A stretch of 64,000 nucleotides of DNA, taken from IMG/VR virus record IMGVR_UViG_3300010430_000004, positions 1-64,000 of that record; one strand, given 5' to 3'. Positions 3,418-53,725 of this stretch are shown here, piece after piece (position 1 is the first letter of the stretch; each line of letters opens with the position of its first letter). Source of the DNA: a virus. The translations under genes and the position numbers were made by a program. The notes under the pieces were generated by a model. That model searched no databases and was not told where the DNA came from. It was given only the letters and a program-made list of their open reading frames with translations.

Positions 3418-3540
3418 GCTTGGTATATTTTACACTAGTTAACAAATTGAATTGTTCAATTTTATCAGGATTTTCATCTAATACTTCGCAAAATCTTTCA
3501 TAAGAAATTTCAACTTCTTCTTTAACAGACATAATTCTCC

Positions 3541-3759
3541 TTATTGATAGATATCTCTGGAATAACATTTATATTCATATTCTTCAAGCGTACAACGCCT
3601 GATAACGGTCTTATCTTTTCTAGAATGTACACAGGTAATATTGGCTGTAGCGTCCATTTTGTAACAACCATTTAAATTTTTCTCAGGAGCTTTTACACTA
3701 ACGCATCCTGATAATAGAAACAAACAACTAAGAGCTAACTTTAACATATTTTTTCTCAT
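3541..3759 (-). CDS. small lipoprotein
   Basis: Signal peptide with lipobox LSGC; four further Cys. Confidence 0.6.
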   Translation of the reverse strand: MRKNMLKLALSCLFLLSGCVSVKAPEKNLNGCYKMDATANITCVHSRKDKTVIRRCTLEEYEYKCYSRDIYQ

Positions 3760-10844: not shown

Positions 10845-11743
10845 TGGCAGATAAAAAACCAAAAGGCAACCAATTACTTGCTAATCCTGATAGTGAATGG
10901 GAAGTAACTATAAACCTAGATGCAGATGAAAGGTTTGTTAACGGACAAGGTACGGACTTTGTTCATTATAAAGCTATACCTTCTTCTATTGGTGTTAAAG
11001 AACGTGGTGATTACAGAAAGGTTGACGCTGCTGATATATCTGCTACTAATGGTTTTAAATATAAAGAAGCTGGTTGTTTTACTGCTATGCTTGTTTCAAA
11101 TAGAAAAAGCAAAAATGCTATGGACGGTGGATTGTTCGATGAATCTACTGCCAGACTTATAATGCCTCGATTTTATAATAAAAATGGCGATTCTGGTGGC
11201 AAAAGAATACACCTAGCTCCAGGTGATCGCATCTATATTAAAGATGCTGACGTAGAGGTTCCTAATTGGCAGAAAATGACATATACTCCTGACAATGGTG
11301 AAGATGTTGCACAATTTCCAATAACTTGCGTAGAATATCTAGAAGATTCCCAAGGAGTAGAATATGTTGCTGGAAGGCACTTTACACTTAATAAAGATGG
11401 AAATATCAAATGGTTGGCTGGACAGAAAAATCCTGGAATAGATCCTGATACTGGAAAAGGCCGAGTATATTCATTAAGATACCTATACAATGCTCACTAT
11501 TATGTCCTTTCTATACCTAACGAACTTAGAGTAGGCAGGGTAACTGAAGGTGGAGTTAGAAAAACTGCAAGAATGCCTTACCATGCTGTTATTCAGAGAG
11601 AATACGTTTATCACCAAAAAGTTAAGTCTAAAAAACCAGAAAATATTGGAAAAGACACTAAAAGAACTAAAGAAGAGCCTGACCAAAAGCCTACTAATTA
11701 CACACCAATAAAGGTGAATATGAACATTGTGGACGATGAATAG
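10844..11743 (+). CDS. putative neck/head-closure protein
   Basis: Position in head-tail cluster; beta-rich; TAATG coupling. Confidence 0.55.
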   Translation: MADKKPKGNQLLANPDSEWEVTINLDADERFVNGQGTDFVHYKAIPSSIGVKERGDYRKVDAADISATNGFKYKEAGCFTAMLVSNRKSKNAMDGGLFDESTARLIMPRFYNKNGDSGGKRIHLAPGDRIYIKDADVEVPNWQKMTYTPDNGEDVAQFPITCVEYLEDSQGVEYVAGRHFTLNKDGNIKWLAGQKNPGIDPDTGKGRVYSLRYLYNAHYYVLSIPNELRVGRVTEGGVRKTARMPYHAVIQREYVYHQKVKSKKPENIGKDTKRTKEEPDQKPTNYTPIKVNMNIVDDE

Positions 11744-11750
11744 GAAAACC

Positions 11751-11759
11751 TAATCTTTA
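11751..11759 (+). promoter_or_regulatory. late promoter motif
   Basis: TAATCTTTA. Confidence 0.7.
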
Positions 11760-11776
11760 ATTAAAGAGGAAAAATT

Positions 11777-12169
11777 ATGAATAAACCAAAAAGACGGATT
11801 AAAGACATTACAGACCCTAGTTCGGTCACTATGATTCATCATAACGCTGCTACTGGTGCCCAAAAGGGTATGAGCTCTGTTCTTCCAGTACCTCAAGCCA
11901 TTAAAACTACTGATGCTCAAGCCTATGCTCTTCCTGCTGGTCTTCAAAAAATTGGAGCTGGTAAATTAGTATGGCTAACTGCTGCTGGTTATACTCTCAC
12001 AGATAGCACTGGAGAATACAAGCCTGTAACAGTTTCTGCTGCATTAGCGCCTATTGGAAGCGTAGTTTCTACTGGCTTGCATTGGGATACTATCACAGCT
12101 CCTGGTGCTTTTATTGTAGAAGATGATAGTGATGTAACTAGAGACGTTTACCCAAGTTCACAAGGGTAA
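11777..12169 (+). CDS. hypothetical virion protein
   Basis: RBS GAGG; late promoter. Confidence 0.65.
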   Translation: MNKPKRRIKDITDPSSVTMIHHNAATGAQKGMSSVLPVPQAIKTTDAQAYALPAGLQKIGAGKLVWLTAAGYTLTDSTGEYKPVTVSAALAPIGSVVSTGLHWDTITAPGAFIVEDDSDVTRDVYPSSQG

Positions 12170-41412: not shown

Positions 41413-41442
41413 TTCTCCTTGCTAGTTTAACTTACAAATTAC

Positions 41443-41524
41443 CTATCGGTGGCTTGTAAAAAAACTTATGCCTCAATTCGAGAAAAATGCAAATTTTTTG
41501 AAAAAACTTTCTCAAAATGAGACA
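41443..41524 (-). promoter_or_regulatory. sigma28/FliA-type promoter + two operators
   Basis: ATAAGTTT-N11-ACCGATAG; operators start at 41469 and 41508. Confidence 0.8.
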
Positions 41525-41530
41525 GGCTAT

Positions 41531-41719
41531 TCAATTAATAAGCTTTTCAAGCAAATCCTTGTTTTTGGCTATAGCACTACACATTACAGTGTTGCAAATG
41601 TTTGTATTTTCTACATTTCTGTCTATACGCTTGTTGGTTCGGTAAAGCCATAACAGGCAACTGATTATAAGTATACCATGTACAGCAACAAAAGCTATAA
41701 ATAAGTCTGTATGGTTCAT
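41531..41719 (-). CDS. small membrane protein
   Basis: N-terminal TM; RBS AAGGAG. Confidence 0.55.
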   Translation of the reverse strand: MNHTDLFIAFVAVHGILIISCLLWLYRTNKRIDRNVENTNICNTVMCSAIAKNKDLLEKLIN

Positions 41720-41922
41720 GTGTTCTCCTTTAGAAAATAAATCTCAATGTTACTTAAACAGTCTTGGTCTGCTAAATTCTTAACAGTTTCCAATACTTGC
41801 GTCTGTTCTTCAGTCAGTGTGTTGTTAACCCACAGTTTTCCAACAGCCTCAATAAAACCTTGGTTGCTAGAATTGTCTTCATAGATCTTCAATAAACGTT
41901 TGTTAAATATAGAGTTTTTCAT
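41716..41922 (-). CDS. hypothetical protein
   Basis: ATGA coupling in the early operon. Confidence 0.55.
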   Translation of the reverse strand: MKNSIFNKRLLKIYEDNSSNQGFIEAVGKLWVNNTLTEEQTQVLETVKNLADQDCLSNIEIYFLKENT

Positions 41923-42106
41923 CAGTGAGCCTTTACTGGTTCATAAACTTCATAGCTATCATAGCCACTTAGCGCGTTAAAAAAGTCAATTAGATCATCA
42001 CACGTCTCGAAATGATACGTGTTAACTTTTCCATTAGTCACGGTTGCTAGTGTCCAATAGATTGACGCTTCTTTTTCCATCTCTAGTAAGCTCTTCATAT
42101 ACTCTC

Positions 42107-42334
42107 CTATGCTACTTTCTTGTTAGTGTTCAATTTCTCGACAAAAATGTCAGCAACTGCTTGTTCACCATAAGTTGCTATCATATTGCTTAATTGTAGT
42201 CTAATAGCCTCTTTTGGATGAGCCATGAAATACTCAATGTTCAGGGCATGAGGTCTGGTAACAGTGTCATCAAACAGTTCTGCTTCAGCTTTCTTATCTA
42301 ATGCTTTGGTTTTATTCATCTTAATCGGTTTCAT
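42107..42334 (-). CDS. hypothetical protein
   Basis: RBS AAGGAG. Confidence 0.6.
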   Translation of the reverse strand: MKPIKMNKTKALDKKAEAELFDDTVTRPHALNIEYFMAHPKEAIRLQLSNMIATYGEQAVADIFVEKLNTNKKVA

Positions 42335-42343
42335 AAATTCTCC

Positions 42344-42661
42344 TTAGAAAATAAGCACATAGCCGTGCTGTGATAAGTTAGTGATATCTGTTAAGTTTTC
42401 CATGTGACTTTCAGCAATCGTTTTGAGTTCACATAAACCCAATCGTCCACAAGAAAGCTGATACTCGTTGTAATTGTCGTCTTCATCGTAAAAGCAGAAA
42501 GCGATAGTGCTCTCGTCTCCATTGTCTTTGTTATAAAGAGTGATACCTACCGAGAATTCTATACCACTCATGTCTGCTCCATCACAGGCCAAGTTGCAAT
42601 CAAGGGCATGGGTATTAAAAGGTTGGCTGCTCCATTCACTGTCCATTGTAGTTGCTGTCAT
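42344..42661 (-). CDS. acidic early protein
   Basis: RBS AAGGAG; first gene after a FliA-type promoter. Confidence 0.65.
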   Translation of the reverse strand: MTATTMDSEWSSQPFNTHALDCNLACDGADMSGIEFSVGITLYNKDNGDESTIAFCFYDEDDNYNEYQLSCGRLGLCELKTIAESHMENLTDITNLSQHGYVLIF

Positions 42662-42693
42662 TTTTCTCTCCTTTAGTTTTCCTTACAAATTAC

Positions 42694-42774
42694 TCATCGG
42701 TCAACTTTCAAAAAACTTATGCCTCAATTCGAGATTTTTCAAAAAAAGTTAAAAAACTTTCTCGTTTTGATACG
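42694..42774 (-). promoter_or_regulatory. sigma28/FliA-type promoter + two operators
   Basis: ATAAGTTT-N11-ACCGATGA; operators start at 42720 and 42758. Confidence 0.8.
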
Positions 42775-42776
42775 CT

Positions 42777-43304
42777 TTAGCTTGCTTCTTGCTCACTAGC
42801 TATCTGTTGGAGTTCGTCTAAGAGGCTATCCACGTCTAGGATGCTGACCCATCTGTCATAGCTCATGTTTAGGTAAAGCCAACCATCGTCACTGATATAG
42901 CCATCATCGACTTCTCGTTGTACCGTCTTCTTTTCGTCTTCAGTTAAGGCTTTAAAAGCGTCATGCAATTCGTCTTCTGGTTGGATTTCTACTTCACCCA
43001 AAGTCATGCCATAAACCTCATTGCTTTGATAGAAAACACCCTCACTAAAGCGCACAGTGCAATGCTTGTGAATGAGAGTAAGGGCTTCATCGTTTTCAAT
43101 ACCACACTTTTCTAAAAGCTTAGCGATATCATGGCTTTCCTCAGAATCAACGTTTTGTAGCGCCTCAATAACAGTGTCAATAGCCTCACCATAGCCATGG
43201 CTTTCTACAAAGTCAGCTGTACCGTTGTCTGGATTGTTTGTGTAGTACTCTGTACCCCATTCACACTCATTCATGTACTTTTCGATAATTTGCTTAACAG
43301 TCAT
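42777..43304 (-). CDS. very acidic early protein
   Basis: RBS AAGGAG before ATG 43304. Confidence 0.65.
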   Translation of the reverse strand: MTVKQIIEKYMNECEWGTEYYTNNPDNGTADFVESHGYGEAIDTVIEALQNVDSEESHDIAKLLEKCGIENDEALTLIHKHCTVRFSEGVFYQSNEVYGMTLGEVEIQPEDELHDAFKALTEDEKKTVQREVDDGYISDDGWLYLNMSYDRWVSILDVDSLLDELQQIASEQEAS

Positions 43305-43328
43305 ATACTCTCCTTTGGTCATATTTTC

Positions 43329-43408
43329 TTATCGGTGGGTCTACAAAAAACTTATGTCTCAATATGAGAATTTTGAAAAAAGTTAAAAAACTTTCTCAAA
43401 ATGAGTCA
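43329..43408 (-). promoter_or_regulatory. sigma28/FliA-type promoter + two operators
   Basis: ATAAGTTT-N11-ACCGATAA; operators start at 43355 and 43392. Confidence 0.82.
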
Positions 43409-43693
43409 GTCAATGTCAAGGTTGCGTTGTTCAATGTCATCATGGTAATCTCCAGCCATCAGCCACAACACCTTGATCTGTAAGTCAGCCTCATCCATGT
43501 CAGTTAGCTCATCCAGCGTCCACGCTCCAGTGTCTCTCAAATACTCTACCATCAACGGTCTCTCGGGAAAGTCCACCTTTTCAGAGTAGTCAACACAGTC
43601 TTGGTAACAATCACCTGCATGGTAACAAGCCTCTAATGCTTCAATGCTGATCTCCATTTCAAAGTAACTAGTCGTCATTATTATAGTTTCCAC
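43406..43693 (-). CDS. very acidic early protein
   Basis: RBS AGGAG; GAW..DEL motif. Confidence 0.65.
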   Translation of the reverse strand: METIIMTTSYFEMEISIEALEACYHAGDCYQDCVDYSEKVDFPERPLMVEYLRDTGAWTLDELTDMDEADLQIKVLWLMAGDYHDDIEQRNLDID

Positions 43694-43745
43694 AAATCTC
43701 TCCTATCTATTTAGTATTGCTCAAGAATCGCACGTTCTCTTGGTC

Positions 43746-43934
43746 TCACAGATGATTCTCAAAATCGCTAGTCACTAGGTTCAACATTTCTATCAAGGTT
43801 TCTGTGTCATAGATCACTCCACGATCAATGGCACGAATAATAGCAGCATTATCAGCTACCACTTTTTCTTCAGTGCTATGGCACACAATCAAATTGGCTA
43901 GTTGTCTGATTGCTTTTCTTAAAACGTTGTTCAT
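43746..43934 (-). CDS. hypothetical early protein
   Basis: TAATG coupling. Confidence 0.6.
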   Translation of the reverse strand: MNNVLRKAIRQLANLIVCHSTEEKVVADNAAIIRAIDRGVIYDTETLIEMLNLVTSDFENHL

Positions 43935-44215
43935 TATCCTTCTCCTAGCAGTTCAGCTACAGTGCTCATAAAGTCTACTGGAACTGTGATTTCGATACTG
44001 TCTATTTCACAAAAATCTAACTCAAGAAAGTCACCATTGTCACTCTCAACGTCACTAACCTCTACTACGTGTCCACCTATAGAGGTCATTGGGTATTTCA
44101 TGCCTTTAGACAAAGCAGTGGCATCTGGACAAAGATCTTCACTCCATAGATAGTCGATAACGTTTTCTATTCTATTCATTCCAATCTCTTCTAGTGTCAT
44201 TCTTAGTGTAATCAT
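43934..44215 (-). CDS. very acidic early protein
   Basis: First gene of the leftward block; RBS AAGGAG. Confidence 0.65.
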   Translation of the reverse strand: MITLRMTLEEIGMNRIENVIDYLWSEDLCPDATALSKGMKYPMTSIGGHVVEVSDVESDNGDFLELDFCEIDSIEITVPVDFMSTVAELLGEG

Positions 44216-44236
44216 CAGTGCTCCTTAGTTAATTTC

Positions 44237-44317
44237 TTATCGGTCAACTACTAAAAAACTTATGACTCATTTTGAGAAAGTTGCAAAAAATATAAAAAAC
44301 TTTCTCGAAATGAGTCG
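44237..44317 (-). promoter_or_regulatory. sigma28/FliA-type promoter + two operators
   Basis: ATAAGTTT-N11-ACCGATAA; operators start at 44263 and 44301. Confidence 0.82.
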
Positions 44318-44319
44318 TG

Positions 44320-45206
44320 ACTGATCGGGACAAGAATAGCGTCCTGATACGTCCTGATTAGGTCTATAGGGTATTACATAGCCACCTATATGCCTCTTAG
44401 AGGCAGACCTACGTGGCTAGAATAGGGGCATGAAACTATATGATTTTGCAACAGATTCGGGTATATACGCGCAGTTGCTGAGAGCTGTTAAGAGTGTGCT
44501 ACTATGGGGTTTGGAGCGCCCCATTGCGAACAGCCCCAACTGCCCAGAAAAACTGACAGTGGCCCATACAGGCAGACAGACAGCCAATCAAACAATGACC
44601 CTATCATACAGCCACCTAACAGACAGCCACCCAGTTAGCTATGGCAAAATGCTAGAAATTTGTATAATTTCGCGTATTTATAAAAATTTTGTGTGTGTTT
44701 TTTCCAGAAAAAGTTGCAGAGCTTGAGAAGCGTGAAAAATGTCGCCTAACTTATCGAAATCATTACAGATCTATTTTGTTTTGCCTATTTACGCGTAGGT
44801 TTTGCCCTAGAGGGAGCATGAGTTTTGTACGTGGCTCTGATAAAGTGGCTGATTGGAGTCGGCTAGTTGTGTCGCCTTTGTTGCCTGTCTGTTGTGGTCG
44901 TCTCTTTGTTGTGGCCTATAAGAAAAGCCTAGAGTCAAAGGCCCCTTGCTAGCTGTGGTAAGGGTTCAACCTTCTTTTCCATGCAGAGAAAAGGCCCCTG
45001 GGGGGTTGTCTGAGCTTTCCACCACTGACGAGGGACCCGTTGGATCCTTCTGACACAGTGGTTCGCCTCATGCAGTGTAACCATGAAAGTCCAGAAAAAT
45101 AGGTACCCCCTTACCATAGAAAACGGAAAAGGGTACCTCAAGGAATCCTGCAAAAAAGGAATCCTATACTGGAGTCCCGATACTAAAGTAGTGGACCATG
45201 GAGTCC
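44320..45206. other. non-coding divergence region (candidate genome terminus/packaging site or origin)
   Basis: GC-richer, no RBS-supported ORF, transcription diverges, hairpins and repeated short motifs. Confidence 0.55.
45178..45185 (+). promoter_or_regulatory. putative middle promoter (CGATACTA)
   Basis: Heads the rightward block; the motif recurs at 45587, 47091, 47600, 48121, 48746, 50695, 51426, 52526, 61041 (+) and 63203 (-). Confidence 0.65.
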
Positions 45207-45230
45207 CCAACCCTCTTAAAAGGAGAACAC

Positions 45231-45581: not shown

Positions 45582-45600
45582 ATTCACGATACTAGTAAAC

Positions 45601-45767
45601 GCTGGGCAAACCATTTGTGCTCGACAGAGTATTGCTTTCGGCTAAATAGCGATAGATACGGAAAGCTCATAGAGGATAAGACCCTTGATTATTGAATAGT
45701 GTACTCTAATGGTCCCTTACGCATTATCTGTCTGTTCTGGATAGTGGTAATTACTGAGTAACCCAGC
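45601..45767 (+). ncRNA. unknown structured RNA / 5' leader
   Basis: Closing stem GCTGGG/CCCAGC; inner ACCATT/AATGGT, GAGTA/TACTC, CATTATC/GATAGTG; starts just after CGATACTA. Confidence 0.55.
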
Positions 45768-45785
45768 ACTTTTTTTGGAGAATAT

Positions 45786-45995
45786 ATGAGAACAAAAATA
45801 AAACATAAATTATTGTTAGAAGTTGAAATAGAGTGCCCTCTTGATAGTGATCACCCTGAACTTCATATAACAAAAGAAGAAGTTGCCGAATCATTGCTTG
45901 GTTCGGGTACTTATGCGGTTTGTGGAGACAATCCTAAAAAATATACAGCATTTATGTCTATCAAAAAAGTAACAGAAATAGATAAAGAATCATAA
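45786..45995 (+). CDS. hypothetical protein
   Basis: GGAG RBS. Confidence 0.6.
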   Translation: MRTKIKHKLLLEVEIECPLDSDHPELHITKEEVAESLLGSGTYAVCGDNPKKYTAFMSIKKVTEIDKES

Positions 45996-46207
45996 TGGCT
46001 ATTAGAAAGCTGTTTAATTGGATGAATCAATACTACGTTCCAGGCTGTAGTGGAAAATGGAGCCATGATTGTCCTGTATGTAAAAAGCCAGATATGATGG
46101 GCACTGCTAGTTGGGACTATGATAAAAAGGATTATTACATAACTGAACATTGCAAATGTGGATATGTTTACCGAGGCATGAGAAAAGACAAGGATGATAA
46201 TGAGTAA
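45995..46207 (+). CDS. small Zn-ribbon protein
   Basis: CPVC...CKCG; TAATG coupling. Confidence 0.6.
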   Translation: MAIRKLFNWMNQYYVPGCSGKWSHDCPVCKKPDMMGTASWDYDKKDYYITEHCKCGYVYRGMRKDKDDNE

Positions 46208-46433
46208 GCTTTCAGATATGATTAGAAAAGGTGAAAGATATGGCATTCAAGCCTGTAATCGTTGCGATTACCCTTCTCTGGTCAGAGCTAATACTTGTGC
46301 TGCTTGTGGATCATGGGATATTGAAGCCAACTTCTATGGAACTACTCAATACAAAAAGCATTTAGATGAAGATCCAATAGTGAGACAAAAAGCCAATGCC
46401 ATTAAATGGCTAAGAACTAGAACACTGAAATGA
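46194..46433 (+). CDS. small Zn-ribbon protein
   Basis: CNRC...CAAC. Confidence 0.6.
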   Translation: MIMSKLSDMIRKGERYGIQACNRCDYPSLVRANTCAACGSWDIEANFYGTTQYKKHLDEDPIVRQKANAIKWLRTRTLK

Positions 46434-46485
46434 ATATTCATGGGCGTGGAGTCCATGAAACAATTAAACAACCGTGGAGGTTAAT

Positions 46486-46911
46486 ATGCAAGCAGATGAC
46501 GCTATCAAGTTATCAAACAAAGCCAAAGAATTATACGATAAAATACTAGATCTATCACTTGTAGATTTTTTGAAAAGAATAGATAAAGATGTTTCGTCCA
46601 ATGCAAATAGGGGTTTTACTAGTTGTATGGTTGATTTGTCTTTTTTGATAAATAATACTAGTATTCTTTTTGAAGCTCTCCAGCCGCTAAACAACCCTAG
46701 CGAGCGAGATGCTATTATGAATAAACTCAAAAAGAGAGTAAAAGACAAATTACCTGTAGGGTGGAGTAGCGATTTTCTAATGACTCCTGGATTTAGGAAA
46801 TTAAAGAAAAACCTGGAACAACACTACAAAGAGTCTGGATTTCAAGTATCTAATGATTATAACAATCCACATACCAAATTTTTAATTAAGTGGCAGAAAC
46901 AGGAACCTTGA
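46486..46911 (+). CDS. hypothetical protein
   Basis: GGAGG RBS. Confidence 0.6.
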   Translation: MQADDAIKLSNKAKELYDKILDLSLVDFLKRIDKDVSSNANRGFTSCMVDLSFLINNTSILFEALQPLNNPSERDAIMNKLKKRVKDKLPVGWSSDFLMTPGFRKLKKNLEQHYKESGFQVSNDYNNPHTKFLIKWQKQEP

Positions 46912-46921
46912 TATTTATCTT

Positions 46922-47075
46922 TGTAGTTGGGAGCTAAGTATCAACGCACTCCAAACCATACATTTTGAATATGTAGCTACTGTGTGTTGGTCGTTGAGAA
47001 GACCAGTGACCCATCTAAACAAAAGTCTCTCATGTACGGTTTGGTCCGTTTAATGATCCGTTTCAACGCACAGGA
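46922..47075 (+). ncRNA. unknown structured RNA
   Basis: Intergenic; CTGTGTGTTG/CAACGCACAG, TACAT/ATGTA and GGAG/CTCC stems; follows TGATATTT. Confidence 0.45.
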
Positions 47076-47101
47076 CGCATGGTTATTTTATGATATTAAA
47101 G

Positions 47102-47272
47102 AATTGAACATTGAAAGCGTGGGTCACTCAGGGTAGCTGACATAGTGACATCTGGCTGTCCACCTTTTTACGCCTGATGAGGATTACCGAAACATAGAAA
47201 TATGTCGCGTGGAGTCTCCCCAGGACAGGAATAACTGGAGACCTAGGCTACCCACTCTTTGAATGTTCAATT
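47102..47272 (+). ncRNA. closed multibranch RNA leader containing the hammerhead
   Basis: AATTGAACATT/AATGTTCAATT and GGGTAGC/GCTACCC stems enclose the ribozyme. Confidence 0.7.
47166..47214 (+). ncRNA. type I hammerhead ribozyme (2-bp stem II)
   Basis: Stem I TTTTACGC/GCGTGGAG, CTGATGA, GG-ATTA-CC, GAAA, stem III CATA-GAAA-TATG, GTC; predicted cleavage after 47206. Confidence 0.88.
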
Positions 47273-47281
47273 AGAGGAATT

Positions 47282-47596
47282 ATGGATAAAGACTTTCTTG
47301 AACAGCTACAATTAATCATTTTTAATAAGGTTCGTCTAGAACCAGTAGGTTATACAGTCAAAATTTTGATGCCCTCTTCAATGTACGACCAGTGTATTGA
47401 CCATTTCACTGCACTGGGTATAAAACCGTATATAGGAAAATTGGAACTGTCTGGACAAAGCGGCCCCCATTATAGTTATGTAGTTTTGATAAATCCAGAC
47501 GCTGATGAAGTGGACCAACACGCAGTATCTGAAGCTGTAATGATTCCAGCTAAACTGGACGGTTTGGGTCCTATACTAGAATACGTCCATATCTAA
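47282..47596 (+). CDS. hypothetical protein
   Basis: GAGG RBS right after the hammerhead leader. Confidence 0.65.
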   Translation: MDKDFLEQLQLIIFNKVRLEPVGYTVKILMPSSMYDQCIDHFTALGIKPYIGKLELSGQSGPHYSYVVLINPDADEVDQHAVSEAVMIPAKLDGLGPILEYVHI

Positions 47597-47614
47597 TTTC
47601 GATATTAATATTTA

Positions 47615-47683
47615 TTCAAGGCATCCTAGAGTCGCGATAGGATGGTGGGAGTAAACCGCACGAAAGGCCCACTTCACCTTGGA
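47615..47683 (+). ncRNA. three-way-junction structured leader
   Basis: TTCAAGG/CCTTGGA encloses CATCCTA/TAGGATG and GTGGG/CCCAC hairpins. Confidence 0.6.
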
Positions 47684-47697
47684 TGTTTGGAGAATAT

Positions 47698-47901
47698 ATG
47701 ACAAAATATAAAAACATTTCTATTAGAATTCCAGCACATACAACCAACAATGGCAAAATCATAGGTTTATATTTTAATTTTCCTACCAAGTTTCATATAG
47801 AAAAAACAAAACTGCCATCTTCTACCAGATATATACTAGACCTAGCTATTCTTGGTTTTGGAATTTATATAAATATTGTCAGAGGTCTTGATGCCACATA
47901 A
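47698..47901 (+). CDS. hypothetical protein
   Basis: GGAG RBS. Confidence 0.55.
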   Translation: MTKYKNISIRIPAHTTNNGKIIGLYFNFPTKFHIEKTKLPSSTRYILDLAILGFGIYINIVRGLDAT

Positions 47902-48136
47902 AAATTATACTTGTTGTGACAGGAATATTTGTGAATGTGGAGAAAAAGAACACCGTACTCATGGCAGTCAAAAAGTAAAAATTGACATTAGAGAAGCGAC
48001 TAAAAAAATTGAATTAGCTTTCCATATAGAACAAAAATACCCCCAATTATCTCTTATAGAAATTAACAGAATAGTGGCAGGAATCCTAAAAGGCAATGTT
48101 CAGCTTTTAGATAAAAAGTCTGATATTAAAAAATAA
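47891..48136 (+). CDS. hypothetical Cys-rich protein
   Basis: GAGG RBS before ATG 47891. Confidence 0.55.
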   Translation: MPHKNYTCCDRNICECGEKEHRTHGSQKVKIDIREATKKIELAFHIEQKYPQLSLIEINRIVAGILKGNVQLLDKKSDIKK

Positions 48137-48209
48137 GTAGTAACTCAAGAGTAGAGTGCCATACCGAAAGAAGTATGAGGTGTGTCAGGTGCGAGTCCGG
48201 CCTACTTAG
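48134..48209 (+). tRNA. aberrant tRNA-like element (8-nt anticodon loop, bulged T stem)
   Basis: TAAGTAG/CTACTTA acceptor, ACTC/GAGT D stem, CATAC/GTATG stem, TGCGAGT T loop; no CCA. Confidence 0.6.
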
Positions 48210-48302
48210 ATGTTATCGTCGGGTGATTCAGAAATGAATCAAGGGAAGCAAGATAATCAGCTCAGTCTCTGTAGACACTAAACTCAGGGTTCTTGTAACA
48301 TC
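48209..48302 (+). ncRNA. structured RNA 3' of the tRNA-like element
   Basis: GATGTTA/TAACATC closing stem; TGATTCA-GAAA-TGAATCA hairpin. Confidence 0.45.
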
Positions 48303-48314
48303 GTTTTAAATTTA

Positions 48315-48345
48315 ACACCGAAACTAGTCCGGTGTAATTGACTAG
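48315..48345 (+). ncRNA. H-type pseudoknot upstream of an RBS
   Basis: ACACCG-AAA-CTAGTC-CGGTGT-AATT-GACTAG: two perfect 6-bp stems. Confidence 0.7.
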
Positions 48346-48364
48346 CCCAGATAAGGAGAAAATT

Positions 48365-48745
48365 ATGGCAGCGCCATTTATAATCAAATATGGTATAGAT
48401 GATTCCAATGGAACTCTTGGAGTTATAGAAACTAAAAAATCCAGAAAAGGAAATTATTACGAAAGAATCAATATTGGTTCTGGATGGGAATATAATCACC
48501 ACTACGAAAAAGATAAGGTATTTATTAACGATGGTTATCAATATGCTTATGCTGCCATAGTTGATTGGCTTTTAGGCAGAGATGATGAAATAGTTTATGA
48601 TCTTGATCTTAACACTGCTCCACCATTTCTTAAGGTTGAAAAAAGTAGTTGTTTTGTATATATCTCAGTAATAGACTTTGATGGTTTTGATATTGATGAA
48701 TTTCACAAATGGACAGAAAACAAAGTAATGGTAAGAGTTTGGTAA
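48365..48745 (+). CDS. hypothetical protein
   Basis: TAAGGAG RBS before ATG 48365. Confidence 0.65.
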   Translation: MAAPFIIKYGIDDSNGTLGVIETKKSRKGNYYERINIGSGWEYNHHYEKDKVFINDGYQYAYAAIVDWLLGRDDEIVYDLDLNTAPPFLKVEKSSCFVYISVIDFDGFDIDEFHKWTENKVMVRVW

Positions 48746-48842
48746 CGATATTAATAAACGGATATGCAGTCCACCGCGTATGATGCGTAGCTGGTCTTCT
48801 TTAAAGAATCATACTCTTGCCAGCGATTTTTTAGGAGAATTT

Positions 48843-49097
48843 ATGGAATTTTGGGTAACTCTTATTGGAGTACATAATTTACACGTAGATGGAGTAAAAG
48901 AAGCATTAGAAGCTAACTGTACTCATGTATTGAATGATTATTATATTTTTGAAGGTTCTCTTGAATATCTTGAAAATCATTACGGAGTAGAATTTTCTAG
49001 TCTTGGCGAAGGTGCGGTTCCATCTCTAGGAGATATGGATCAAGGTGCTCTTATTCATCTTTGCTTTGAAGTTTTTGGAATAGATGTGACTATATGA
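48843..49097 (+). CDS. hypothetical protein
   Basis: AGGAG RBS before ATG 48843. Confidence 0.6.
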   Translation: MEFWVTLIGVHNLHVDGVKEALEANCTHVLNDYYIFEGSLEYLENHYGVEFSSLGEGAVPSLGDMDQGALIHLCFEVFGIDVTI

Positions 49098-49209
49098 GTG
49101 CTTCCCTTTTTATTTTTATACTAGCAGTGATTGTACCACACGAAGCAGACACTATTGTTTGGTTTGCTTGGTTCATTTCACTTTTTATTGATTTTGAGTA
49201 GGAGAATTT

Positions 49210-49917
49210 ATGAACAGAAGAGATCTTTTAAAAACCGGAGCAGCACTTTCTGCCGTTGCATTTTTGCCTTTTTATAAAAGCAAAACAAAACCAAAGTGGG
49301 CAAAGGCTGATCATATTAAAACTTTAGATAGTTGTCTTTATCAGTATAATAAAAGAATAACCAAAGATCTTCCACCTGTTTATTACAAATGGGGAAAGAA
49401 ACTAAACGCATCAATAGATGCCAACACTACTACTTATATCAGGCAAATTTCTATAGAAATGGCAGCGCCCAATGTTACCAAACAAAATATCATAAATGAA
49501 ATTAAAGAAAAATGGAACGATGACTCTGCAATCTTAACTACTATTGGTGCAGAAGGGGCTTTTATCGATTTGGATACTGAAACCTTTAGAGCTCATAGAG
49601 ATATAGCTTCCCTTAAAAGATCCTTAAAACAAAACAGAGAATACGAAGATTCGAAAAGCATGACAGAATATAAGGAATGTATTATTGATAAAAATCCTCA
49701 GTATTCTAGAAAGTGGAGAGAATGGTACACTGAAAATAAAAGGCACATCCATGTATTGCCTGTGGGAGAAAAATCTATAATCAAAGAGTCTTATAAAACA
49801 AGCAATAGATTTTGTATAGACTCTTTTGCTAATCAAAACATTGCCGCCAGAGACAAGACTATTCAGGATATAAAAAATAAAGAAATTAACCCACTTTATT
49901 ATAGGTCCCTTATATGA
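49210..49917 (+). CDS. protein with twin-arginine (Tat) signal
   Basis: MNRRDLLKTGAALSAVAFLP. Confidence 0.7.
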   Translation: MNRRDLLKTGAALSAVAFLPFYKSKTKPKWAKADHIKTLDSCLYQYNKRITKDLPPVYYKWGKKLNASIDANTTTYIRQISIEMAAPNVTKQNIINEIKEKWNDDSAILTTIGAEGAFIDLDTETFRAHRDIASLKRSLKQNREYEDSKSMTEYKECIIDKNPQYSRKWREWYTENKRHIHVLPVGEKSIIKESYKTSNRFCIDSFANQNIAARDKTIQDIKNKEINPLYYRSLI

Positions 49918-50240
49918 AGAAAAGAAAAGCACCTAAAGTTATAGCTGGGGCTCGTGGGTTGTTTGTTAAAGACGGAGTGACTCATGGGTATGCTGTTGGT
50001 GTATCTGTGGTAGCTAACTATGCCAACATCTCTTTTGGTACCGTCAGGGTAGTAAAAGGTCTGGTAGAAAAGTTTACCGAACTCCAAGAATGCGAATTAC
50101 AAATCTTGGACCCTGCCACTAATGAAATAATACACAAATTAGACCTTAAAGATTATAAACCCTATATTACAGCTAATGATGGTTTATTTACTTGCCAAAT
50201 ACCGCTGAAGGTTGATAAGGAAAAAGATGAAGATAATTAA
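49914..50240 (+). CDS. hypothetical protein
   Basis: ATGA coupling. Confidence 0.6.
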   Translation: MKKRKAPKVIAGARGLFVKDGVTHGYAVGVSVVANYANISFGTVRVVKGLVEKFTELQECELQILDPATNEIIHKLDLKDYKPYITANDGLFTCQIPLKVDKEKDEDN

Positions 50241-50703
50241 AGCGCCAGCAACATTAAAAATTGAAGGACCTTCTGTATTCCTTGCAGGAAGCATAGAAAT
50301 GGGCAACGCTGTTGATTGGCAAAGTTCCATTACAGACTCTATAGAAGAATCTGGATTGTTCTGCACAGTATTGAATCCTAGAAGGGAAGACTGGGATTCT
50401 TCATGGTTGCAGAGTATAGAAGATCCACAATTCAAACAACAAGTAAGTTGGGAATTAAATGCTTTGGAAAAAGCAAAAGTAGTAGCTATGTATTTCGCGC
50501 CAGGGACAAAGAGCCCTATATCTTTGCTTGAGTTGGGCCTATACGCTGAAAGTGGCAAAATGATAGTGTGCTGCCCTCACGGTTTTTGGAGAAAAGGAAA
50601 TGTAGACGTAGTGTGCGAAAGGTATGGAATTCCAGTTGTCGAAACGCTCGAAGAACTGGCCGATGATATAATTGCTGAATTAGAACATTACGCCCGATAT
50701 TAA
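50227..50703 (+). CDS. nucleoside 2-deoxyribosyltransferase-like protein
   Basis: VFLAGSI..DWQ, LNPRR..W, QV.WEL, SPISLLELG, F.RKGNV. Confidence 0.88.
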   Translation: MKIIKAPATLKIEGPSVFLAGSIEMGNAVDWQSSITDSIEESGLFCTVLNPRREDWDSSWLQSIEDPQFKQQVSWELNALEKAKVVAMYFAPGTKSPISLLELGLYAESGKMIVCCPHGFWRKGNVDVVCERYGIPVVETLEELADDIIAELEHYARY

Positions 50704-50796
50704 TATTTAATATACCCTAAAGCCTGAGCTCAAGTGGCCAAATGCTGATGGAAAATCCCACAATCATTCAAATGCCCAATTAGGGTGGAGGTTGCC

Positions 50797-51438
50797 ATGA
50801 GCAAAAAAATAGAAGAATTCAAATACAGTTTTATAGTAGATATCATTACTCTTAAAGAATTCATTGAGAGAGTAGAAATTAAAGAGTTTGATGATTTATT
50901 TTATGCGTATAATGCGCAAGTATCAACGCCAGATTTTTCTGCTTTTTTAGAAGATGTAAATGATTATCCAGAAGAAGAAACTCACTATAAAAAGAAAGTG
51001 ACCTCAATGGTTAAAGCTAATGAAGAAAAGCTTTTTCTTAATTATGTTCTTAACAATGGCGAACATAGCTTTAAATGGAAAGTACCTATACAAGATTTTT
51101 ATGAAGACTTGGGCATAGATCACATGATGAACTTTGGCATGGCAAAATGTATAGTAAAGCTTGGCGCTAGAAGATATATGGTTGCTGACCCCTGCGATTT
51201 TGCCAGACTTCATGGAAAAAGAGGAAAAGGAGTCGTTGCTTATCATCACAATAGGCTTCTTATTAGAGAAATGATGCCTATAACTGAAAAGGAAGCTATT
51301 CGTAGGGCTAAAAAAATTATAGGAAGAAAACCCACAAAAGAAATGATCAAAAATTTAGAAGCAGCAGGTGAGGTCATTGAAAAAGCAAATGAACTTGTCA
51401 AAAAAATAAAAATTTCCAAAAATGACGATACTAAATAA
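50797..51438 (+). CDS. hypothetical protein
   Basis: GGAGG RBS; preceded by a leader closed by ACCCTAA/TTAGGGT. Confidence 0.65.
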   Translation: MSKKIEEFKYSFIVDIITLKEFIERVEIKEFDDLFYAYNAQVSTPDFSAFLEDVNDYPEEETHYKKKVTSMVKANEEKLFLNYVLNNGEHSFKWKVPIQDFYEDLGIDHMMNFGMAKCIVKLGARRYMVADPCDFARLHGKRGKGVVAYHHNRLLIREMMPITEKEAIRRAKKIIGRKPTKEMIKNLEAAGEVIEKANELVKKIKISKNDDTK

Positions 51439-51442
51439 GTAC

Positions 51443-51530
51443 ATCTATGCTATCTTACCCTGGAAAGGCGTATTGAATCATTCTGCGGATTCTGTAGGAA
51501 AGTAAGTCATAGATAGGGAGTAATTGCCCT
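51443..51530 (+). ncRNA. structured RNA 5' of the tRNA-like element
   Basis: ATCTATG/CATAGAT, CTTAC/GTAAG, CCT-GGAA-AGG, GAATC/GATTC. Confidence 0.5.
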
Positions 51531-51599
51531 GGAAAAGTAGTTTAATTGGTTAAAACCCCCTCGTTGAGGGGAATGTCGGTTCGAGTCCGGCCTTTTCCG
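51531..51599 (+). tRNA. tRNA-like element (Asn GTT-like) with anticodon arm 4 nt too short
   Basis: GGAAAAG/CTTTTCC, GTTT/AAAC, CCCTC-GTT-GAGGG, GTCGG-TTCGAGT-CCGGC; no CCA. Confidence 0.75.
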
Positions 51600-51617
51600 A
51601 TTTTTTTAGGAGAATTT

Positions 51618-51806
51618 ATGGAAAACATAGACAAATTATTTATATATTTCCTTATACAAACGTTCGTAGCGGCTGGAATTATGACTATATTTAAAGTTAT
51701 AGGCGTAGCACCAGAAAATTTAGATATGAATATGATATTTGCCATTGCTGTTGGAACAGGCGTGTTCTGGAGCGTTAAGTACCATCTTGGGCAAAATGGA
51801 AAATAA
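51618..51806 (+). CDS. small two-TM membrane protein
   Basis: AGGAG RBS; two hydrophobic helices. Confidence 0.6.
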   Translation: MENIDKLFIYFLIQTFVAAGIMTIFKVIGVAPENLDMNMIFAIAVGTGVFWSVKYHLGQNGK

Positions 51807-51977
51807 AGAAAAGAAAAATAAAAGATCCAAATATATTGGAAGGTTTGATGCTCTATCTGACGAGTATTCAAAAGTAAACAGAAGAAGAAGCCGAACATTA
51901 ACAGCAGACAATACAAGTACCCAGGGTCAACACTATAATGGGCACACATCAACTTCTGGTGGAAAAATGAGCACAAA

Positions 51978-52310
51978 ATGAATATTAGGTTTAACCCAAA
52001 AGGTTTGACAGAATCTTTTTCGGTAATATCTGTAGATTTTAGAAAAGATTCACCTAGAAGTTTTTGTCCTCACATGGGAAAGGTAAACTGGTTCAATTTA
52101 TATATAACCAATATATTATCTATACAAGACATGGGAAAATATAGAGAAATAAAAACAGATACGAGTGCTTCTGGAAATAGCCCCTATAGGCATCTTGTAA
52201 CTATAGGAGTTGGAAAAATGGATTCTAATGGAAGGCTTATATTCTTTGCACAAAACTCCCTACAAGACCTGATAGAGCAGTTAAAAAATTCAGGAGCAGA
52301 ACTGTATTAA
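51978..52310 (+). CDS. hypothetical protein
   Basis: ATGA coupling. Confidence 0.55.
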   Translation: MNIRFNPKGLTESFSVISVDFRKDSPRSFCPHMGKVNWFNLYITNILSIQDMGKYREIKTDTSASGNSPYRHLVTIGVGKMDSNGRLIFFAQNSLQDLIEQLKNSGAELY

Positions 52311-52320
52311 TCTTAAATAT
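52308..52320 (+). promoter_or_regulatory. late promoter, leaderless transcript
   Basis: TAATCTTAAATAT directly before ATG. Confidence 0.7.
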
Positions 52321-52521
52321 ATGAAATTAAAGTATTTGTCTGATTTGAAAAAAAATCAAAAAATTACACAAGGCTTAGAGAATCCTCACCAGCCTAAAAA
52401 GAACAGCATGGGACACAAATCTGGTGGACAGATCCTTCGCTACGGTTCAGATATATTTGCTAAACCTAAATCTAAGGTACCAAATAGCAAAATCGCCAGC
52501 AGATCTAAAAAAGACTACTAA
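52321..52521 (+). CDS. small basic putative internal head protein (MKLKY..DLKK leader)
   Basis: Shared leader; own late promoter. Confidence 0.65.
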   Translation: MKLKYLSDLKKNQKITQGLENPHQPKKNSMGHKSGGQILRYGSDIFAKPKSKVPNSKIASRSKKDY

Positions 52522-52643
52522 CACCTGATATTAAATTTTGAAGGAAAAAAGACTGTGAGCTAGTATCCTTTAGGGTGTGGCCCGTACCGACTTTTTCTTA
52601 TAGTTTTCTCACAGCTATAGGAAGGGCGCTTTTAGGAGATCTT

Positions 52644-52787
52644 ATGAAAACTTTTCTTAATGTTTTAGGTATAATAGGGGCTTTAGTTGCTCTTGTTCTT
52701 TTTATGAGCTGGATGGTAAGCTGTACCTGTGAAAGTGCTGGAACTTCAACTGTAGTTGTCGGTGGGCAAACTCACAGATGTCATTAG
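52644..52787 (+). CDS. small membrane peptide
   Basis: AGGAG RBS; one TM. Confidence 0.5.
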   Translation: MKTFLNVLGIIGALVALVLFMSWMVSCTCESAGTSTVVVGGQTHRCH

Positions 52788-53725
52788 AACAAATAAACCT
52801 TGGCTGGGGCAATCCGTATTTTCTTTTACAAATATTGAATGGAAGTATACTTCCAAAATTTATGAATTTTGAAGCCAGCGAATTAAGTTATCCTCCGAAA
52901 GATGGGTTAGAGGAGTTGAGAAACCTAACCAAACAGGTAATCAAAGAAACTACTGGCCTTGATTATGATCATATTATAATTACCAATGGCGCTACATCTG
53001 CTATTAATACTATTCTTAGATACGAAAAACCAAAATATGTATACACCCATGAATATGGTTATCCTCTTTATGATAAAATTATAAAAGGCAATAAAATGGT
53101 TAGAGTAAATGATCTTACTAGACCTAGACAACAAGATTGCATTGATTTAATAGATAGCCCAAGCAACCCTACTGGTAAACAAGTATTGTTTGCTCACGGT
53201 AATAATTCTATATGGGATGCTGTATATCATAGTTCAATATACACTTATAATTTAAACCTTTTCCCAAAAAATCACAAATATTATGTAGGCTCTTATAGTA
53301 AGTTATTGGGTCTAGCAGGATGCAGAGTAGGATTTATTGCTATAAACGACCCTTTCCTTCGAGATGAATTGTATTTTGAAAATTGGAAAGACTTAGCTGG
53401 AGTTTCTGCTCTTAGCCAAAAATTTTTAATAAACGTTTTAAAAGAAATAGACCTTCCAATGTTCTTAAAAAGTGGAGAAAAAAGCCTAAATTACAACAGA
53501 GAAGAATTCCAAAAAATAGAGCATTTATTCGGCAATCAATTAGTCAATGAAATTGGTATGTTTTATTGTGCTAAATGCGATGATAGGCTTTTCAAATTCT
53601 TAGATAAATGCAATATTCAATACGTTAAATTAGATAGTGAGACTATACGATTATCTATGGGTCACGAAAATGAAATAACAAAATCTGCCATTAGCAGAAT
53701 CAACCAAATGGACAAAATAAAATGA
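52778..53725 (+). CDS. PLP-dependent aminotransferase class I/II-like enzyme
   Basis: TNGAT, DSPSNPTG, WDAVY, SYSKLLGLAGCRVG. Confidence 0.9.
   Translation: MSLEQINLGWGNPYFLLQILNGSILPKFMNFEASELSYPPKDGLEELRNLTKQVIKETTGLDYDHIIITNGATSAINTILRYEKPKYVYTHEYGYPLYDKIIKGNKMVRVNDLTRPRQQDCIDLIDSPSNPTGKQVLFAHGNNSIWDAVYHSSIYTYNLNLFPKNHKYYVGSYSKLLGLAGCRVGFIAINDPFLRDELYFENWKDLAGVSALSQKFLINVLKEIDLPMFLKSGEKSLNYNREEFQKIEHLFGNQLVNEIGMFYCAKCDDRLFKFLDKCNIQYVKLDSETIRLSMGHENEITKSAISRINQMDKIK

Follow-up and report, generated by a model that had tools for sequence, protein, structure and literature searches.

A cluster of promoter-linked non-coding RNA segments in a large phage includes a widespread double-pseudoknot RNA with an optional hammerhead

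The first 64,000 nucleotides (nt) of the phage genome recorded in IMG/VR as IMGVR_UViG_3300010430_000004 (hereafter the window; the genome comprises 168.5 kilobases (kb) at 36% GC) hold, at 45.6-52.6 kb, a run of nine promoter-like octamers, each followed by a non-coding segment (A to I). One of these, segment C, contains a ~95-nt double-pseudoknot core that recurs in at least 141 distinct phage, prophage and metagenome-assembled genome (MAG) copies spread over many phyla, and it carries a type I hammerhead that other copies lack or hold in permuted order. For the run as a whole, we find the evidence about evenly balanced on the proposal that it is an accessory island of independently acquired, separately promoted small-RNA genes, not one leader system.

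The conserved core of segment C

Segment C consists of an outer helix, P0, ending 1 nt upstream of the ribosome-binding site (RBS) of open reading frame (ORF) 47282, and, within it, two core halves, X and Y, that flank the hammerhead (Table 1). Half X comprises a first half-site (47117-47122), helix Pa (47123-28/47144-49), one strand of Pb (47131-37), a conserved stretch (47150-55) and one strand of Pc (47156-61). Half Y comprises the second half-site (47207-47212), helix Pd (47214-19/47237-42), the partner strand of Pc (47223-28), an invariant loop (47229-36) and the partner strand of Pb (47247-53). The hairpins Pa and Pd are cross-linked by two pseudoknots: Pb pairs the loop of X with the 3' tail of Y, and Pc pairs the 3' tail of X with the loop of Y.

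Covariation among homologues establishes this fold at the level of sequence. Across 108 copies, the columns of Pa, Pc and Pd are 97-100% paired with several pair types, and Pb averages 6.8 base pairs (bp) versus 3.4 with shuffled partners. Overall, the helices are ~99% paired and show compensatory changes. In 20 hammerhead-free copies, 22 of 27 pairs vary on both sides; none of 500 shuffles reached the covariation score, and slid controls scored far lower. An additional pair linking the two domains is CG in 131 and AU in 8 of 141 copies among the matches listed. A covariance model built from hammerhead-free copies alone recovers C in the window (E 2e-9) and found no second copy in the genome. 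About 30 core positions are invariant, partly as a product of search patterns that required those bases. Because Pb and Pc covary together as pseudoknots, the inner pairings were ruled out as competing alternatives. An identity with ribozymes of the hepatitis delta virus (HDV)-like or theta type was likewise rejected, since the covarying helices form two cross-linked hairpins rather than the nested P1-P2-P3-P1.1-P4 arrangement whose J4/2 holds the catalytic C, and gave no Rfam match.

Copies were collected by pattern scans of phage, prophage and MAG sequence, and some are close relatives of one another. At least 99 have the order X-hammerhead-Y, at least 24 are X-Y without a hammerhead (usually with a linker of 12-14 nt) and at least 18 are circularly permuted as hammerhead-Y-X. 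In GTDB genomes, 28 of 32 matches were complete elements, carried under the labels Bacillota, Pseudomonadota, Actinomycetota, Bacteroidota, Chloroflexota, Planctomycetota, Gemmatimonadota, Acidobacteriota and Patescibacteria, and by one archaeal MAG. Cultured carriers include Arthrobacter phage Constance, mycobacteriophage Gaia, SDFMU_EhYP, Microcystis phage Mwe-JY26, whose hammerhead-free copy lies near 99,017-99,115 of PP438418, and Pectobacterium phage Pappous, a weak blastn match in which the hammerhead and the flanking blocks X and Y stand in swapped order. A close copy is present in 15 of 5426 E. coli genomes; the one inspected lies, unannotated, between Q and holin. In E. coli lambdoid prophages (L211:1990-2215), the permuted element sits inside a long imperfect stem between these two genes, and this enclosing stem is possibly an RNase III site.

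The surroundings of these copies bear on the role of C. Among the matches listed, a tRNA lies within 200 nt of 36 of 141 copies versus 6.7% expected, all 43 copies within 1 kb of a tRNA share its strand, the next ORF begins a median of ~200 nt away (13 of 116 copies lie within 40 nt), and no fixed downstream gene was found. The genes that follow other copies encode HNH, small terminase, holin, methylase or portal proteins. A role for C as a riboswitch or cis-regulatory leader was rejected, as the distance to downstream genes varies and those genes are functionally unrelated; tRNA proximity and the ~200-nt spacing fit a stand-alone, highly transcribed RNA better. The initial description of C as a leader thus does not extend to its homologues, which usually are not leaders. 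An RtcB-like ligase gene directly follows the C element in one locus (L161:618-1772) and lies near C in L080 and L108; RtcB was nearby in 3 of 139 short C loci, too few for reliance.

The sequence-only reading had named a hammerhead in this region, and it is supported by both consensus and homologues, although the widespread conserved RNA around it went unnoticed. The motifs CUGANGA, GAAA and NUH are present, with stems I (4 bp, open), II (2 bp) and III (5 bp), and the predicted cut falls after C47206. Among the homologous hammerheads listed, CUGA occurs in 111 of 117, UC or UA stands at the cut in 112 and stem I is fully paired in 95. The second half-site of the core forms part of stem I. When the hammerhead is present, the predicted cut is at the same base. 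We conclude that C carries a type I hammerhead with an intact core that is predicted to cut itself. To that extent the proposed control of mRNA processing can be kept for one cassette, C.

Rfam hammerhead models did not match segment C even at E 10, and at the gathering score neither the core nor the hammerhead matched in 17 homologue loci. No description of the core was found in the literature; with the 8,495 IMG/VR candidates catalogued in PMC10690425 not compared, it is an uncatalogued conserved RNA.

Both halves of the core start N-CG-Y-GG, and the N of these NCGYGG half-sites is matched between them. It was identical in 140 of 141 copies among the matches listed (G in 79, C in 51, U in 6, A in 4; the exception is A/G), including 24 of 24 without a hammerhead. 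The mutual information of the two N columns equals that of Watson-Crick pairs, no complementary third column was found in the C alignment, and the predicted hammerhead cut falls directly before the second N. On a tree built without the N columns, from a short alignment and poorly resolved, N changes ~41 times. One homologue locus (L079:231-448) holds a tandem pair of hammerhead-free cores, in which the matched N bases are U/U in one core and C/C in the other. Together, the repeated changes and this tandem pair argue that shared ancestry and host both fail to explain the identity. The two N bases might touch directly at a pseudo-two-fold axis, lie in a pair of twin binding pockets or mark two ends that can be exchanged; covariation in base identity is in any case an unusual constraint for any structure to explain.

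The matched N bases also invite the idea that the core is itself a ribozyme, cutting or exchanging strands 5' of both NCGYGG sites to yield nicked, spliced or circular RNA, with the hammerhead as a booster at one site. We consider this very doubtful. The many invariant bases within a small double pseudoknot, the use of all four bases at N with or without a hammerhead, the coincidence of the hammerhead cut with the second N, natural circular permutation and the few RtcB neighbours would all fit; on the other side stand the lack of a common complementary guide base for N, the absence of likeness to known catalytic cores, the failure to find RtcB in this genome, and the fact that direct N-N contact would account for the identity without chemistry. 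Under the island proposal, the core would most likely act in trans as a compact pseudo-two-fold RNA, a putative binder of a small ligand or a protein, with the hammerhead as an optional maturation device releasing the Y end. Cleavage after 47206 would split the RNA into two pieces that Pb and Pc keep joined, half Y would begin with a 5'-OH, and the mRNA of ORF 47282 would gain a knotted, decay-resistant 5' end.

The octamer and the segments as a set

All nine YGATAYT(A) motifs of the original description are present on the + strand, the one at 46909 in the weaker form TGATATTT; a tenth, at 45178, had been overlooked and has a short leader (53 nt). Of the 17 CGATAYTA sites beyond the island, 12 precede a called start by 10-80 nt, versus 4.5% of random positions, and CGATATTA ranks top among 1120 permutations of its own letters, while the TGATAYTA form has a weaker position bias (6 of 21). 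The octamer is kept in relatives, with identical spacings in G001. Oriented enrichment just upstream of genes, combined with such retention, is the behavior of a phage promoter, and the octamer is most likely a -10-type element from which transcription would start a few bases downstream. The -10 boxes of sigma-28 (FliA/SigD) and of SPO1 late promoters carry a CGATA / GATATT core, which the octamer shares with both. Unlike those promoters, however, the octamer sites have no visible upstream -35 box, and no protein with sigma-70 region 2 or 4 was found encoded in the genome.

The segments that follow the nine octamers are indeed GC-richer and non-coding: they span 97-244 nt without a credible ORF at a GC content of 0.41-0.48, versus a median of 0.33 in the other 60-300-nt gaps of the genome (n=46; 3 reach 0.40). 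Eight of nine close just before an RBS and start codon, as had been described, whereas B ends at the next promoter. A tract of at least four U directly upstream of the RBS occurs in 4 of those 8, compared with 10 of 147 RBS-bearing genes genome-wide. The position bias of the octamer and the non-coding, GC-rich nature of the cassettes are clear from these scans. The broader claim, of a folded leader on nearly every middle transcript, fails genome-wide, because octamer leaders elsewhere are only 25-70 nt long; long GC-richer leaders occur solely at 45.6-52.6 kb.

To score folding, minimum-free-energy (MFE) z-scores were computed against dinucleotide shuffles for two sets of boundaries, promoter to RBS (untrimmed) and trimmed to the apparent folds, the latter picked after inspecting those folds. 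With untrimmed boundaries, the expected folding excess appeared in C (z -3.93) and in none of the others (+1.15 to -1.65), whose mean is near 0. Trimming shifted most segments mildly negative (A, B, D, E2, F, G, H1 and I, +0.23 to -1.74), and the multibranch and three-way-junction folds proposed for A, D, E2 and H1 gained no individual excess. A pseudoknot-aware stem score picks out C and E3, and marginally H2 and E1. A helix pairing both segment ends is present in most segments, which are mutually unrelated in sequence and fold.

Homologues with strong covariation were obtained for C. For A, B, D, E1, E2, F, G, H1 and I, blastn against phages, pattern scans of viral and metagenome contigs, nhmmer on 1.9 megabases of loci, and searches of related genomes gave nothing or chance hits; these searches depend on near-exact words, so that negatives do not show absence. 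Having no homologues, the folds of A, B, D, E2, F, G, H1 and I remain candidates. The prediction that most folds would not be recognisable as known families held in Rfam scans, which matched H2 as a tRNA (at both gathering score and E 10) and nothing else in the segments or the rest of the genome. Resemblances to known families failed on core motifs: the c-di-GMP-I riboswitch for A, cobalamin or glycine riboswitches for E2, and pistol, twister, hatchet or HDV ribozymes for D, G and I.

These weak signals would suit a reading of most segments as decaying relics (old tRNAs, terminators or gene remnants) in a dispensable region, with C alone under selection: the mean z is near 0 without C, homologues were not found and both tRNAs are defective. 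We nevertheless think this distinctly unlikely, given that segment GC is 8-15 points above that of other gaps, each cassette keeps its promoter and most keep the end-pairing helix. The z-scores are in addition low in power, as the true tRNA-like H2 itself reaches only -1.2 to -1.8.

Island, leaders and known systems

In the closest relative, L058 (~70% identity), ~2 kb of differing sequence replaces the island, which indicates that the island is accessory; further assemblies of the same phage are 100% identical. At the island's place, L058 has a ~16-nt repeat array (3510-3640) with the promoter octamer inside some repeats, and a similar word occurs twice at window 45142-45167. Most island ORFs that were tested are orphans. 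As we picture it, each cassette would carry a separate copy of a general, non-early phage promoter, mostly with an orphan ORF behind, its RNA would accumulate as a stable species, and the island would be the counterpart of the tRNA and non-coding RNA clusters of other large phages.

The earlier proposal of a cassette system producing many small RNAs therefore survives as a cluster of promoter-linked non-coding cassettes; a single folded-leader system is unsupported, because the segments are unrelated, the same promoter elsewhere gives short leaders, and L058 has the motif without the island. Several points weigh against the island proposal all the same. The direct passage of eight cassettes into an RBS fits leaders equally well, no binding partner is named for the C core, the N-N identity is left unaccounted for, and 8 of the 12 sub-segments have neither homologues nor individual folding excess. 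The segments could instead act in cis as 5' leaders, stabilising or gating the translation of the downstream orphan genes, as the closure of P0 and the position of E3 next to RBSs, and the frequent location of C homologues at the head of late operons (HNH, small terminase, holin), would suggest. We rate this as rather unlikely: B has no ORF behind it, C homologues stand well away from the next ORF and often among tRNAs, and unrelated folds follow a promoter that elsewhere has short leaders. A bolder proposal, and an improbable one, is that the C core is a new catalytic RNA class with two half-sites that undergo cleavage or exchange, or an aptamer with twin pockets in which N sets ligand specificity, and that a panel of further RNAs replaces a tRNA cluster.

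The island proposal has parallels in other phages. The T4 tRNA region includes species 1 and 2 RNAs. Myxococcus phage Mx1, which one large structural-region protein of the window matches at 28.5%, is related and has a cluster of >20 tRNAs with RNA ligase and TROVE genes. Like these clusters, the island would be a stretch that the phage can do without, in which short RNA genes alternate with small ORFs of no assigned role; unlike them, it belongs to a phage in whose whole genome no intact tRNA was found (ARAGORN, Rfam), and nearly every RNA has its own promoter. A large phage may thus retain an RNA-gene cluster without a working tRNA. GOLLD lies near tRNAs. With the phage- or prophage-associated ornate RNAs GOLLD, ROOL and OLE (PMC12286853), C shares this association and the lack of an assigned function; those RNAs are several hundred nt long and in Rfam, whereas C and the other segments have no Rfam match to them.

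Bacterial and phage type I hammerheads commonly have short stems II (Perreault et al. 2011, PMC3088659). C resembles them: it has the complete catalytic consensus, an open stem I and a stem II of 2 bp, and it occurs in phages and prophages. It differs in that stem I also belongs to a distinct double-pseudoknot domain, one that is found in hammerhead-free form as well; the invariant loop word of the core does not occur in the text supplements of that study. Theta ribozymes (Kienbeck et al. 2024, PMC10879173) belong to the HDV-like class and cleave adjacent to tRNAs. C is likewise a small knotted RNA with predicted self-cleavage, enriched beside phage tRNA genes, but it differs in helix order, stands at no fixed distance from tRNAs and relies on a hammerhead for its predicted cut. 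C thereby bears on the open question of what bacterial and phage hammerheads do, tying one to a fixed position in a conserved uncatalogued RNA that is found with it, without it and permuted. Its presence in Constance, Gaia, Pappous and E. coli lambdoid prophages makes a direct test possible.

Other segments and neighboring genes

Table 1. Coordinates of promoter-like sites and RNA segments in the window
Feature	Position	Strand	Basis
Promoter-like octamer before A	45587-45594	+	motif scan, position statistics
A: multibranch candidate, 6-bp closing helix, then U7 and RBS	45601-45767	+	z +0.19; no homologue
Weaker promoter-like site before B	46909-46916	+	motif scan
B: candidate irregular rod, 11-bp helix 46980-46990/47063-47073, no ORF behind	46922-47088	+	only chance hits
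Promoter-like octamer before C	47091-47098	+	motif scan
C, whole element; P0 47102-47117/47257-47272	47102-47272	+	z -3.93
C core half X	47117-47161	+	covariation
Type I hammerhead	47170-47210	+	sequence consensus; core kept in homologues
C core half Y	47207-47253	+	covariation; covariance model E 2e-9
Promoter-like octamer before D	47600-47607	+	motif scan
D: three-way-junction candidate	47613-47685	+	z -1.74 trimmed; no homologue
Promoter-like octamer before E1-E3	48121-48128	+	motif scan
E1: tRNA-like cloverleaf	48134-48208	+	by eye; no ARAGORN or Rfam call
E2: multibranch candidate, 8-bp closing helix	48209-48302	+	stem score, trimmed z
E3: H-type pseudoknot, 6 + 6 bp, just upstream of RBS of ORF 48365	48315-48345	+	stem score; no homologue
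Promoter-like octamer before F	48746-48753	+	motif scan
F: three-hairpin candidate, then U6 and RBS	48760-48824	+	z -0.6 trimmed
Promoter-like octamer before G	50695-50702	+	motif scan
G: candidate, 8-bp closing helix, interior poorly defined	50713-50787	+	z -0.09 trimmed
Promoter-like octamer before H1-H2	51426-51433	+	motif scan
H1: three-way-junction candidate	51443-51514	+	z -1.21 trimmed; no homologue
H2: tRNA with collapsed anticodon arm, then U7 and RBS	51531-51599	+	Rfam RF00005, ARAGORN tRNA-???
Promoter-like octamer before I	52526-52533	+	motif scan
I: candidate, several competing or crossing helices	52538-52628	+	z +0.23 trimmed

Two broken tRNAs had been noted, and both are borne out to different degrees. 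H2 matches RF00005 at 48.1 bits, which demonstrates tRNA ancestry from its sequence, and is the sole Rfam or ARAGORN match in the genome, with no anticodon assigned by ARAGORN; E1 is a cloverleaf by eye only, with an 8-nt anticodon loop lacking U33 and a bulged T stem. Both have acceptor, D and T arms, neither has a 5-bp anticodon stem with a 7-nt loop and U33, and CCA is encoded in neither. E1 and H2 may be decoys or relics without normal decoding. The D- and T-loop words of E1 recur among tRNA-like elements of another phage, L147, where tandem, circularly permuted elements (T arm, closed acceptor, D arm) at 11400-11800 are Y-RNA-like; that phage also carries a C core that lacks the hammerhead, alongside a tmRNA and many tRNAs. 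A Y RNA identity for E1 and H2 was rejected, since no TROVE gene was found in this genome and both keep normal, not permuted, tRNA order.

E3 is a credible H-type pseudoknot, as predicted: its stem score is 31 versus 4.2 in shuffles, 0 of 150 shuffles scored as high, and no homologue was found. Type III antitoxin mimicry, which the sequence-only reading had raised, found no support; E3 is single-copy and no segment is repeated in the genome, whereas tandem pseudoknot repeats are required. For B, a 6S RNA was rejected because its predicted bulge is one-sided, with no symmetric central bubble and no Rfam match, and a B-C switch via a 9-nt complement was dismissed as being at about chance level and breaking a conserved helix.

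The island lies immediately right of the GC-skew minimum. At this minimum, between divergent gene blocks, window 44300-45230 is gene-poor and GC-richer, and is a possible genome end or replication origin. Within the island, an orphan 235-amino-acid protein (49210-49917) has a twin-arginine signal peptide (PF10518). A gene for a pyridoxal phosphate-dependent aminotransferase (52778-53725) adjoins the island and occupies the corresponding place in L058; in the more distant relatives L061, L062 and L174 it adjoins DnaB, ClpP and thymidylate synthase genes. On the - strand at 41432-44316, four repeated ~90-nt promoter cassettes precede leftward genes, and L058 keeps one copy of the cassette (1905-2003). 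Compared with the generally known sigma-28 consensus, the cassettes have a sigma-28-like -35/-10 pair, which could point to a flagellated host, predatory or deltaproteobacterial.

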